NCBI GenBank assembly: GCA_002328405.1
Contig: DCXM01000006.1
Location: forward strand, 711,837-775,836
From: Proteobacteria bacterium UBA2136
Lineage (GTDB): Bacteria; Pseudomonadota; Alphaproteobacteria; UBA2136
Direction of reading: 5' to 3'
DNA: 64,000 nt
Shown: piece by piece, positions 56,229 through 59,508 of the stretch
Layout: each line of letters starts with the position of its first letter
How positions within the stretch are numbered: position 1 is the stretch's first letter
Notes under the pieces: generated by a model
What the model saw: the letters and a program-made list of their open reading frames with translations, nothing else
Databases searched by the model: none
What the model was told of the DNA's origin: nothing
Made by a program: the position numbers and the translations under genes

Positions 56229-56408
56229 AAGCCCTCCAGTTCAGTGGTTGTGAAAAAAGGTGAAAGATGTTGTTTGACAAAAAGAATGTGTGGGGTGGCC
56301 ATCCTTGCTTTTCAAGCGTGCTTGCATAAAATTATGGCAGAATATGCAAAACGGTGCGACTTTTGCTTGAAAGCGCAGCAAGCCCGTGGTAAACATTAAA
56401 CATCTTAT

Positions 56409-56482
56409 GCGGGATTAGCATAGTGGTAATGCTCTAGCCTTCCAAGCTAGCTAGAGGGGTTCGATTCCCCTATCCCGCTCCA
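56409..56482 (+). tRNA. tRNA-Gly (anticodon UCC), CCA encoded
   Basis: Hand-folded cloverleaf: acceptor GCGGGAT/ATCCCGC, D stem GCAT/ATGC, anticodon stem CTAGC/GCTAG with loop CTTCCAA, T arm AGGGG-TTCGATT-CCCCT, then TCCA. Confidence 0.9.
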
Positions 56483-56519
56483 ATTTACCCCCAGCGTTAA
56501 AAATAAGTTATGCCCTTGG

Positions 56520-56720
56520 TCAGGCTTCGCTTTGGCATGGTGTGAGAAGGGAGGGGAAGCGAAAAGAAGGTGACAGCCTTCGTGTGACCGGTTCGGTCAC
56601 GCCCCTCGTAAAAAGAGGGGTTTGACAGGAGGGCAGATAACCTGCCCGACGCAGACGACAAGCGAAAGCTTGGTCGCCCGCAAGGGTAAGCGTCAGCGCA
56701 TCATTCTCACGCACCACACC
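56520..56720 (+). ncRNA. Candidate structured RNA or cis-regulatory leader, class unknown
   Basis: Five local hairpins (56584-56600, 56602-56620, 56631-56647, 56657-56675 with a GAAA loop, 56676-56687 with a GCAA loop). They are enclosed by a possible long-range helix, GTGTGAGAA (56540-56548) with TTCTCACGC (56704-56712). The GNRA loops exist only on the + strand. Confidence 0.35.
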
Positions 56721-56807
56721 TTGATTTTTCATTGATGACGGGTGTAACATGTTGCGTGGTTCCATAAGTAAATAGTGAAATGGTAAGAAAAAAGAAGGCC
56801 GAAGACT

Positions 56808-57512
56808 ATGATTCAAATTCGCTTGGCAGATGGCCGTGGCTTAACCCAATTGGGTTGGCTGAAAAGTCAGCACAGTTTCTCCTTTGGTGACTATTATGAC
56901 CCTGATCATAACGGTTTTGGCACTTTGCGGGTGATCAATGAAGATGTTGTTGCACCAGGGCAGGGTTTTGGCAAGCATCCACACCGCAACATGGAAATTT
57001 TGTCCATTGTGTTAAGCGGCACCCTTGAACATAAGGACAGCATGGGCAACGGCTCTCGCATTCAAGCGGGAGATGTTCAGCGGATGAGTGCTGGCACAGG
57101 GGTGACCCATAGCGAGTTTAACCCATCAGCCGATGAGGCTGTCCACTTTTTGCAGGTTTGGTTTGTGCCCAACAAGCAAGGGATGGCGCCAAGTTATGAC
57201 CAAAAGTCCTTCGATGAAAAAGGGCGGATGGGGCAATTGCAACTGATTGTGTCACCTTCAGGGCGGGACGGCTCGCTAACCATCCATCAAAATGTGGATA
57301 TTTACGCAGGAACATTGGCGCACTCCAGTCAAGGTTTTGATTATGTCACGCTTGCGGGGCGTCGGGTTTGGGTGCAGGTGGCGAAAGGGCAATGCCATAT
57401 GAATGGTCACCCCCTCAAAGCAGGGGACGGTGCGGCGGTGATGGACGAAGAACGGCTGACCTTCACAAACGGTGAAGATGCCGAGATTTACATTTTTGAC
57501 ATGGCGGCATAA
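56808..57512 (+). CDS. Pirin-family protein (cupin; YhhW-like)
   Basis: GFGKHPHRNMEILSIVLSGTLEHKDSMGN metal-binding signature; 234 aa. Confidence 0.88.
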   Translation: MIQIRLADGRGLTQLGWLKSQHSFSFGDYYDPDHNGFGTLRVINEDVVAPGQGFGKHPHRNMEILSIVLSGTLEHKDSMGNGSRIQAGDVQRMSAGTGVTHSEFNPSADEAVHFLQVWFVPNKQGMAPSYDQKSFDEKGRMGQLQLIVSPSGRDGSLTIHQNVDIYAGTLAHSSQGFDYVTLAGRRVWVQVAKGQCHMNGHPLKAGDGAAVMDEERLTFTNGEDAEIYIFDMAA

Positions 57513-57529: not shown

Positions 57530-57566
57530 AAAAAAGGCTGTCACGCTTTGGACAGCCTTATTTTTT
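57530..57566. terminator. Bidirectional terminator between pirin and the 647-aa gene
   Basis: A-run, then GGCTGTC-(8 nt)-GACAGCC, then TTATTTTTT. Confidence 0.7.
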
Positions 57567-59508
57567 ATGGGTTTTCAGACCTTTTGATTTCCAATTTAAA
57601 GGGGTAAGTGCGGGACTGTTCTTGGGTGGAATAGACCACTTTTACAAATTGAGGTGTGCCTGAAGCGTATTGCGTGATGCTGTCGCCCGATTTAGTTTTC
57701 ATGTTGGCTTTCAGCACTTGCTTTTTGCCGCTAAGCGGTAACACATTGAGAATTTGCCCCTCAGGGTCTTCTAACTTGTAAGTGAGGTTGTTGTATTCTG
57801 CCTTTTCAATATGCACCAAGGCTTTGCCCACTTTATGCGGTTTGTCGGTCGTTGCGGGTATCACATCCTCTTGAATGACATTGGCAATGCGCAGTTCTAA
57901 AATGCCGTGGACGGTTGTGGCGTCATCCGTGGTATAGCCGTCGGCCAGTCTTAGGGCTTTTTCACCTTTTACGGTGTGTTGGTATAGGGCGCTGTCCCCT
58001 TGGTAGGTCATATGGGAAGAGGCTGATAAAGCTTGGGGTTTATTGTTGCGGTCCTTCCCGCAGGTTTCTAGTTTTAAAATGTTGTTGCCTTGGCTATTTT
58101 CCACCCTTTGGATGGTAACTTTGGCGCGGGCGTTTTCGTCATTGCTGTGCATGCTGGCGGGTATGTTGGGGATGATGCCACTTTTAACATGGACAAATAA
58201 TGTGCTGTCATTTTGTTTTCTGCGATTGGAGAAGGACTGGGCTTCGGCGCCAACCAGCACTCTAAATGGGCCAAACTTTTCGCCAAGGTCTTGGCTGAAT
58301 TGGTCAATGTTGCTGGTGTCAATGTTGTCAATGTCTGCATTGTTTTGATAGTAAGGAATTTGCCTTGGGTCCGCCAATACATCTTCTTTTGGCTCGGTGG
58401 ATTCGGACTCTGATTCGGTTGTGGATTGAAACTTGAATTGGGACTGAATCAAGGTGGCAATTTGATTTTGAATGTCACTCATCTGGCTGATTTGGTCGCC
58501 AGATATTGCCATGTTGAAGGTGAGTTTGTTGCCGCTGGCGTCAAATTCCATGCTTTCAAGGATGTCCTTGTAAAACTGGATGCTTGCCGGCTCTTTGGGG
58601 AACAGTTTCACAAAGCCGTCCCTTTTTTCCTGTGCGTTGGTGGCCAGTTCTTTGGCTTGTTCGGCCGTGGTCCATGACTGAAGGTTTAACGCCACGCCAC
58701 GATCCATCAGGCTCACCTCGGCGCCAAAGTAGGTTTTGGTAAAGTCTTCGGTGGGGGCTTGCGCCAGCATCATCCGTGTCATCGGTTCTTTAATTTGTTT
58801 TTTGGCTAATTCTGGGTTGAAAATGGCGGCGGCAAACAGTTTGTTTTGGCGGTAAGTTTTCCACGGTGCGGCATGGTCACTGTTTTTTGGATTGGTCAGT
58901 TTTTTAAGCGCTTGTTTGATTTTACCTTCGGCGGTGATGATGATGTTGTCCTGTTGGATTGAAATATCCAAGTTAGGGACTTTGCCACAGGTTTCCACAT
59001 CCTCTGGTGGGGTGACACGGTAAATATGGGCATTTTTGGCAATGGCGGTGGTGAGGGCGTTTTGTTTGATGGCGCTGGCCAGTTTTTCGGGGTTAAATTG
59101 CCCAGTCAACACCAAGGTGACGTCTAAGGTGGTTCTACTTGCTTCGGTGCTGGCTGCTTCCGCCACCAACAGCAATTTTTCAGCTTGTTTGTGGATGGGT
59201 GCGCCAGCGCTGTTGAGTTTTTGTAAAAAGCCAAGGGGGTTGCCAACGGACATTTTAGGCGCTTGGCTTAAAAGGTCCCCCTCTGTTTCGGCAAGGCTTA
59301 AACTGCGTTCAATATCGGCATAAAAAACCGCCACGGTTTGTGGGGTTAGCAGTTTTTGCTCGGCAATGTCAATGGTTTCGGATGGTTTAGATGTGGTGAG
59401 GGACTGGATGTATTGATAAACAATTAGCATAGCCAACAGAGCTACCACCAGGCCTGCGGCCATTAAAAGGTGTTTTTTTGGTAATTGTTGCAAGGGTTTG
59501 ATTTGCAT
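57565..59508 (-). CDS. Large membrane-anchored protein (647 aa), unknown function
   Basis: N-terminal TM (LLMAAGLVVALLAMLIVY). The long extracytoplasmic region has an acidic Ser/Glu linker (TTESESESTEPKED). No recognisable domain. Confidence 0.6.
   Translation of the reverse strand: MQIKPLQQLPKKHLLMAAGLVVALLAMLIVYQYIQSLTTSKPSETIDIAEQKLLTPQTVAVFYADIERSLSLAETEGDLLSQAPKMSVGNPLGFLQKLNSAGAPIHKQAEKLLLVAEAASTEASRTTLDVTLVLTGQFNPEKLASAIKQNALTTAIAKNAHIYRVTPPEDVETCGKVPNLDISIQQDNIIITAEGKIKQALKKLTNPKNSDHAAPWKTYRQNKLFAAAIFNPELAKKQIKEPMTRMMLAQAPTEDFTKTYFGAEVSLMDRGVALNLQSWTTAEQAKELATNAQEKRDGFVKLFPKEPASIQFYKDILESMEFDASGNKLTFNMAISGDQISQMSDIQNQIATLIQSQFKFQSTTESESESTEPKEDVLADPRQIPYYQNNADIDNIDTSNIDQFSQDLGEKFGPFRVLVGAEAQSFSNRRKQNDSTLFVHVKSGIIPNIPASMHSNDENARAKVTIQRVENSQGNNILKLETCGKDRNNKPQALSASSHMTYQGDSALYQHTVKGEKALRLADGYTTDDATTVHGILELRIANVIQEDVIPATTDKPHKVGKALVHIEKAEYNNLTYKLEDPEGQILNVLPLSGKKQVLKANMKTKSGDSITQYASGTPQFVKVVYSTQEQSRTYPFKLEIKRSENP

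Follow-up and report, generated by a model that had tools for sequence, protein, structure and literature searches.

3′ETS-leuZ of E. coli is a short, Hfq-bound RNA that works as a base-pairing sponge. Small RNAs derived from tRNA spacers, of which it is one example, have been discussed previously (bioRxiv 10.1101/2021.04.25.441314). The hairpin-rich module described here occupies the spacer behind a tRNA-Gly gene in a 64,000-nt window (by which we mean the whole stretch of DNA that was analyzed). Like 3′ETS-leuZ, it lies directly after a tRNA gene, has no promoter of its own and would presumably depend on processing of the tRNA precursor; unlike 3′ETS-leuZ, it is ~190 nt long, GC-rich and multi-branched. 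RNAs of the 3′ETS-leuZ type may be the nearest working analogy for the module, with no sponge role implied.

The GOLLD (RF01998), ROOL (RF03087), raiA and HEARO families, ornate noncoding RNAs encoded close to tRNA genes or within prophages and islands, are defined by wide conservation and covariation. The module resembles them in its high GC content, its many hairpins, GNRA loops and multi-way junctions, and its position near a tRNA gene and mobile DNA. Unlike these families, it is confined to one species; it falls far short of GOLLD and ROOL in size, and no Rfam model matches it even at E ≤ 10.

That tRNA genes are hot spots for integration is well documented (e.g., bioRxiv 10.1101/2020.11.02.365908; PMC11476347). 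The present locus fits this description, with a proven tRNA-Gly attachment site, a 27-nt repeat, a tyrosine integrase and variable downstream DNA. However, unlike island remnants, the module has neither a flanking repeat of the tRNA end nor a gene remnant, and its composition and fold are unlike those of ordinary island DNA. With REP/BIME, Correia, RPE and MITE elements it shares the packing of short, GC-rich, perfect palindromes into an intergenic region, but those elements are multi-copy by definition, whereas the module and its 12-mers are unique in the genome. If real as an RNA, the module would join the orphan structured small RNAs already on record, and its youth and hot-spot location would be its main points of note.

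Locus layout and fold of the core

The flanks are as the initial annotation had claimed: the spacer (56483-56807) follows tRNA-Gly(TCC) and precedes a pirin gene. The features of the locus are listed below in order of position.

56367-56395, plus strand: promoter-like motif TTGAAA-N17-TAAACA of tRNA-Gly, picked out by eye and putative
56409-56482, plus strand: tRNA-Gly(TCC) gene, found by ARAGORN and matched by Rfam RF00005 at 66.9 bits
56456-56482, plus strand: 27-nt attachment core from the T-arm to the CCA end, present as a direct repeat at both island ends in the conspecific contig L064
56483-56533, plus strand: AT-richer trailer from the tRNA end to the structured core, with a metatranscriptome contig over 56463-56534
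56534-56720, plus strand: structured core, RNAalifold consensus with 63 pairs
56566-56581, plus strand: predicted hairpin H1, GAAGG/CCTTC, which reads on the minus strand as a terminator-like hairpin and then TTTT
56584-56600, plus strand: predicted hairpin H2, with a 7-bp perfect stem and a 3-nt loop, unchanged across all variants
56601-56621, plus strand: predicted hairpin H3, GCCCCUC/GAGGGGU, with a 7-nt loop, then UUUG
56631-56647, plus strand: predicted hairpin H4, GGGCAG/CUGCCC, with a 5-nt loop that holds its sole change (56641)
56648-56694, plus strand: predicted three-way junction with two C(GNRA)G arms, its sole change being GAAA to GGAA
56714/56715, no strand: breakpoint at which, in the conspecific contigs L021-L023, a KAP/Sll1717-type P-loop NTPase gene and AT-rich DNA adjoin
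56721-56750, plus strand: U-rich tract directly 3′ of the closing helix, together with a putative promoter-like motif of pirin, picked out by eye
56808-57512, plus strand: pirin-family bicupin gene (Pfam Pirin and Pirin_C_2), a neighbor outside the module

The tRNA-Gly gene of the window is 95 to 99% identical to its copies in three genus relatives, and a TTGAAA-N17-TA.... motif can be seen by eye upstream of tRNA-Gly in all four genus genomes (the window's and the three relatives'). The putative pirin motif consists of TTGATT (56721-56726) and TAACAT (56745-56750) around an 18-nt spacer and is similar to the tRNA-Gly motif; a consensus promoter scan flagged neither of the two. The genome holds a second tRNA-Gly(TCC) gene (G000:C10:13787-13863, minus strand), which measures 77 nt against the 74 nt of the window copy. 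Next to pirin, the minus strand of the window (57565-59508) encodes a 647-aa protein that has no Pfam match, yet is not a complete orphan, since homologues occur in G003 (35% identity, syntenic, before pyruvate kinase) and in G001 (25%, elsewhere).

All five hairpins that had been proposed for the spacer are in place (56584-56600, 56602-56620, 56631-56647, 56654-56675 and 56676-56687), and two helices can be added to them, GAAGG/CCTTC (56566-56581) and GACGC/GCGTC (56648-56652 with 56690-56694). The second of these encloses both GNRA hairpins and thereby makes the three-way junction, whose tetraloops, GAAA (56664-56667) and GCAA (56680-56683), are both of the form C(GNRA)G. As had also been pointed out, the GNRA loops exist on the plus strand only, their minus-strand equivalents being UUUC and UUGC. 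The core as a whole is predicted to form a five-way junction that is closed by two irregular helices, 56534-56544/56710-56720 and 56549-56561/56697-56708.

The core fold is far from random, which confirms the initial observation. Its minimum free energy is −85.2 kcal/mol, compared with −59.6 ± 4.2 kcal/mol in dinucleotide shuffles (z = −6.0; none of 300 shuffles was as good), and it contains five perfect hairpins with a stem of at least 5 bp where 0.84 would be expected (P = 0.0005). Since every stem is a perfect Watson-Crick palindrome, the minus strand folds as well as the plus strand (z = −5.97). GC content peaks at 0.60 in the core, compared with 0.444 for the genome on average.

The closing helix is ambiguous because repeated CAC/GUG motifs permit at least three pairing registers. 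The 9-bp long-range helix suggested earlier (56540-56548/56704-56712) is present in the window, but T56707C introduces an A·C mismatch in four of the five other conspecific variants. The alternative pairings once likened to switchable structures are a product of the low-complexity, CAC-rich 3′ strand.

A single-copy module found in one species

The module is present in a single copy, matches no known family, was found in one species population only and is separable from pirin. The Rfam check advised in the initial annotation passes only the tRNA at gathering thresholds, and a search of Rfam 15 at E ≤ 10 on 551 nt gave nothing within the core. RNase P RNA, SRP RNA and tmRNA were located elsewhere in the same genome. 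Identity with 6S RNA was rejected on three grounds: no match at E ≤ 10, a predicted fold that is branched and not rod-like, and the lack of the module in the genus relatives. As a separate observation, RF00013 (6S) found nothing at E ≤ 0.001 in the whole genome (G000, 97% complete), while the Caulobacter control matches.

Dispersal as a repeat or MITE family would have told against the initial proposal; instead, both BLAST and a covariance model find it once in the 1.73 Mb of the genome, where no 12-mer of the core recurs. The description as an unclassified structured element thus holds, given the nonrandom fold, the lack of an Rfam match at E ≤ 10 and the evidence against a repeat or MITE. 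Beyond the genome, searches were equally negative. When the spacer was compared by BLAST with the genome it comes from, with 40 relatives and with phages and plasmids, only the self-match was returned, and a covariance model of the element (R1) had no credible match among the 29 genomes of the order or among 150 from the class. Its best foreign match (G006, 21 bits) turned out to be a generic GCCCCUC/GAGGGGC terminator-like hairpin with large gaps, and chance alone would yield as many class-level matches as the three at E = 0.016-0.027. When viral, metagenome and genome contigs were scanned for exact patterns, three patterns had no match; the 13 matches to a 20-mer of H2 have that hairpin alone in common with the module. 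No similarity was found between the module and known island ends, neighbors' genes, phages or plasmids.

A ranking of GC-rich intergenic segments was dropped as support because its top segments include small ORFs, e.g., that of an 87-aa Gly-rich protein. This ORF (G000:C7:596969-597232; L052:170-433), which specifies an N-terminal hydrophobic segment and a Gly-rich tail, is the most GC-rich segment of the genome outside long ORFs (0.667) and is followed by a strong terminator.

The 98-aa minus-strand ORF that spans the module and overlaps the pirin start (56520-56816) was already considered implausible in composition in the initial annotation, and we likewise judge it non-coding, as it has neither a Pfam match nor a real homologue. 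Compared with 1.84 billion protein representatives, it matched only its own conspecific copy and one cadherin-repeat protein. The latter match was discarded: its score is summed over near-identical repeats, and the best single stretch (28.9 bits) falls far below library significance. Segregating sites in the ORF are distributed 4/3/3 over the codon positions, with no third-position bias, and the frame is lost in L021. A pseudogene reading was rejected as well, since tblastn of the neighbors' and the islands' proteins against the spacer yielded nothing.

Conspecific contigs were recovered via pirin proteins 96 to 99% identical to that of the window; they are marine, and several come from Tara samples. 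Most of them carry the module, at 97 to 99% identity, and it was found in this one species only. Identity among pirin homologues then jumps from 96% to about 60%, and the species stands alone because its next pirin homologues are so distant. In L021-L023, which may derive from one sample, pirin is 97% identical and the same gene follows downstream, but the module is absent. From exactly 56715 onward these contigs align with the window again, and the 93 nt upstream of the pirin ATG show no change. The module is therefore dispensable, as three genus relatives and one conspecific variant do not have it.

Insertion hot spot at tRNA-Gly

This locus proves to be a hot spot for insertions and can now be listed as a tRNA-Gly integration site whose 27-nt core is defined. 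In the conspecific contig L064, a 9.3-kb island (L064:3560-12860) sits between the tRNA and the module, and the island also occurs in L011 and L015. A 596-aa DUF6538/tyrosine integrase is encoded next to attL; the other products are an 819-aa single-subunit RNA polymerase of the T7 type, a CI-like repressor and a 700-aa protein whose matches to GHKL-ATPase and HSDR_N are weak, and there are also two small ORFs and one ORF of 61 aa. The island has no phage structural genes, and a phage-type RNA polymerase is unusual on an island so small. Neither DNA-pattern nor protein searches turned it up in viral contigs. We also rejected a phage-borne copy of the module, because island DNA starts straight after the CCA end at attL and the island carries no copy of the module.

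The module lies between this tRNA attachment site and the second recombination breakpoint at 56714/56715. A direct repeat of the tRNA 3′ end was sought at its right edge and not found: when 56450-56510 is aligned locally with 56680-56760, shuffles score higher on average (P = 0.96). Next to attR, comparison of an island-bearing strain with L013 revealed 8 differences within 56495-56613, followed by 1176 identical nt, a clustering that would arise by chance with a probability of about 5e-9. This mosaic of differences shows that recombination has passed through the module recently.

The module is absent after tRNA-Gly in the three genus relatives, which have other DNA there. In G001 and G002, pyruvate kinase follows tRNA-Gly within 120-260 nt on the opposite strand, while in the window it lies 3.1 kb further on; in G003 three other ORFs lie between tRNA-Gly and the homologue of the 647-aa protein.

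Further variation around the locus was recorded in single contigs. In L021, the gene for the KAP/Sll1717-family P-loop NTPase (L021:2-1045, minus strand) stands beside pirin where the module would be; the closest homologues of the protein are about 50% identical (best 53%) and mostly gammaproteobacterial, so it looks like accessory or defense-type cargo. In the Tara scaffold L012 (L012:4759-7861), the gene of the 647-aa protein specifies only 589 aa and a 354-aa plus-strand gene takes the place of pyruvate kinase, which means that the right side of the locus is also strain-variable. One conspecific genome has an extra 159-aa ORF without a Pfam or PHROG match (L025:2974-3453) between a 78-aa gene and tRNA-Gly.

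A candidate trailer RNA and competing readings

The metatranscriptome X1 provides contigs over 56300-56492, 56463-56534 and 56565-56746 and nothing more until a pirin contig at 56893. Apart from a single gap of 30 nt, the stretch between the tRNA and 56746 is thus covered, and the cover ends just past the U-rich tract. Depth in X1 is about 4 (4.2) in the module, 14 in the tRNA contig and 149 in the contig holding pirin. This cover is a hint only, because contigs reveal neither the strand nor the ends nor the level of a transcript and carried-over DNA may contribute. In two other studies the pirin contigs start at 56787 and 56812, and runs X5-X7 cover pirin alone, so that their absent module cover carries no evidence. 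By eye, no promoter-like motif was seen between the tRNA and the core. Since the module itself lacks a promoter-like motif and the X1 contigs run nearly unbroken from the tRNA to 56746, it may be cotranscribed with the tRNA.

We infer the plus strand from the GNRA loops and from C/U changes that preserve pairing there as G·U. Two C/U polymorphisms opposite G (alignment columns 75 and 178) keep pairing on the plus strand only. By contrast, the path at 56537/56717 from G-C through A·C to A-U is paired throughout on the minus strand only.

Polymorphism and structure may point to function, although only weakly. Segregating sites in the core number 10 of 187 among 11 conspecific sequences, whereas four-fold sites segregate at 12 of 106 in pirin alone (P = 0.07) and, once those of the 647-aa gene and of pyruvate kinase are added, at 109 of 596 (P = 4e-6); these tests are weak, as the samples are few, related and different between regions, and the block of module plus pirin is low in diversity overall. 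The most polymorphic piece of the spacer is the trailer 56483-56533 (5 of 51 sites) and the least polymorphic is the stretch between the core and the pirin ATG (2 of 87). Within the core, changes affect 1 of 86 positions in local stems, 5 of 61 unpaired positions and 4 of 40 in the closing helices (stems versus unpaired, P = 0.08). The single local-stem change is a C to U opposite G that keeps the pair. It is found in L011 (C56604U, in H3), where the pair stays as G·U and a loop change at 56613 permits a second perfect register. The change of GAAA to GGAA falls on the free N position of the tetraloop. Of the 63 predicted pairs, 57 never vary, and in the covariation analysis shuffles do no worse than the data. 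The initial annotation would have doubted the module if relatives showed neither conservation nor covariation, and this doubt is half borne out, as no relative was found outside the species in the genomes and contig collections searched.

Our preferred, if tentative, reading is that the module is a young, species-restricted structured RNA of ~190-240 nt, encoded on the plus strand in the 3′ trailer of the tRNA-Gly transcript; we would place it somewhat short of probable. Transcription would start at the tRNA-Gly promoter, with the core as the 3′ trailer of the tRNA precursor, and processing of the tRNA 3′ end would set the core free. The released RNA might then fold as a five-way junction with two GNRA-capped arms, its 3′ end would fall near the U-rich tract (56721-56733), and it would not be part of the pirin mRNA. 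The z score of −6.0, the five hairpins, the plus-strand GNRA loops, the GC content of 0.60, the reduced polymorphism and the non-coding character of the module argue for such an RNA, as do the X1 cover, the genus-conserved promoter-like motif of tRNA-Gly and the module-free contigs L021-L023. Against it stands the persistence of the module in island-bearing strains, although there it is 9.3 kb away from the tRNA promoter. The module also has no relative that could be found beyond the species and is absent from genus relatives and one conspecific variant. RNA-library depth is low, the minus strand folds equally well, and the closing helices vary like loops. If the module functions as an RNA, a streamlined marine alphaproteobacterium would here possess a structured RNA gene of very recent origin that differs in presence between strains, affording a rare view of how such genes arise at tRNA-linked hot spots.

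Doubtful, though to be taken seriously, is the view that the module is a functionless relic of acquired DNA, e.g., the inner end of a decayed island or a foreign structured fragment, left stranded between the tRNA-Gly attachment site and pirin and too young to have decayed. The hot spot itself speaks for this origin, with the 9.3-kb island inserted at 56456-56482 and another accessory gene at 56714/56715, as do the genus relatives, in which unrelated DNA or nothing lies between tRNA-Gly and the next conserved gene. A relic is also consistent with a module that is species-restricted and dispensable, departs from its host in composition, has no promoter or canonical terminator of its own and lies in a mosaic block with recent recombination through it. 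However, random or decaying DNA does not look like a set of five perfect stems rich in GC together with two C(GNRA)G loops, and polymorphism is below that of synonymous sites and mostly avoids the local stems. Moreover, the right edge has no repeat of the tRNA 3′ end, and likeness to island ends, neighbors' genes, phages or plasmids is lacking. Should the module prove a relic, it would be a useful warning that an RNA gene takes more than a z score of −6 and GNRA loops.

Besides the trailer RNA, we considered a newly arisen or recently acquired RNA gene of an undescribed class, a five-way junction of ~190 nt with two GNRA-capped arms, tied to the tRNA-linked hot spot, acting, e.g., with or against integrating islands and defense-type cargo, which we think unlikely.

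The palindromes might alternatively serve at the DNA level, or as a cluster of terminators or insulators that shields pirin and its promoter from read-through of the highly expressed tRNA gene or from inserted islands. The terminator scan passes no hairpin on the plus strand and returns one terminator-like site on the minus strand (56581-56566), corresponding to H1. A shielding role would suit the perfect palindromes that fold equally on both strands, the UUUG after H3, the U-rich tract after the closing helix, the end of RNA-library cover at 56746, before pirin, and the position between the attachment site and the promoter-like motif. Yet ~190 nt with a GNRA three-way junction goes far beyond the needs of a terminator, the genus relatives manage with one bidirectional hairpin, and strains of the L021 type do without the module, all of which makes this role decidedly improbable.

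Even less credible is a minus-strand small RNA that would start in the pirin promoter region and end at the hairpin 56581-56566 and its T-run. The 182-nt contig 56565-56746 ends exactly at the base of this hairpin, so that its left end (56565) coincides with the terminator-like site, and the 56537/56717 path stays paired on the minus strand. Contig ends are imprecise at a depth of 4, however, and no promoter-like motif was seen on the minus strand to the right of the module. In such an RNA, the GNRA loops would become UUUC and UUGC, and the two C/U changes opposite G would break pairs.

Least of all does the evidence favor the leader proposed in the initial annotation, a riboswitch-like 5′ region of the pirin mRNA: although the module is co-directional with pirin, immediately upstream of it and equipped with alternative pairing registers in its closing helix, it is gone from L021-L023 with the 93 nt before the ATG intact, no predicted helix reaches the ribosome-binding site AGAAGG (56792-56797), the failure of any plus-strand terminator to pass the scan means that no expression platform was found, no contig in four metatranscriptomes joins module and pirin, and the promoter-like motif at 56721-56750, which lies downstream of the module, would leave it outside the pirin mRNA if it is the pirin promoter. 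Nothing module-like was found in about 190 related genomes and in contig collections, a survey that leaves out the upstream regions of more distant pirin genes, and the identity jump among pirin homologues means that there are no intermediate relatives in which a conserved leader could be present. Whether the module is an RNA gene or a relic, its reading as a riboswitch of pirin can be dropped. A minor observation concerns pirin itself: the homologue at G001:C12:44609-45312 (L004/L007) is apparently broken into two pieces, with an internal TAA.
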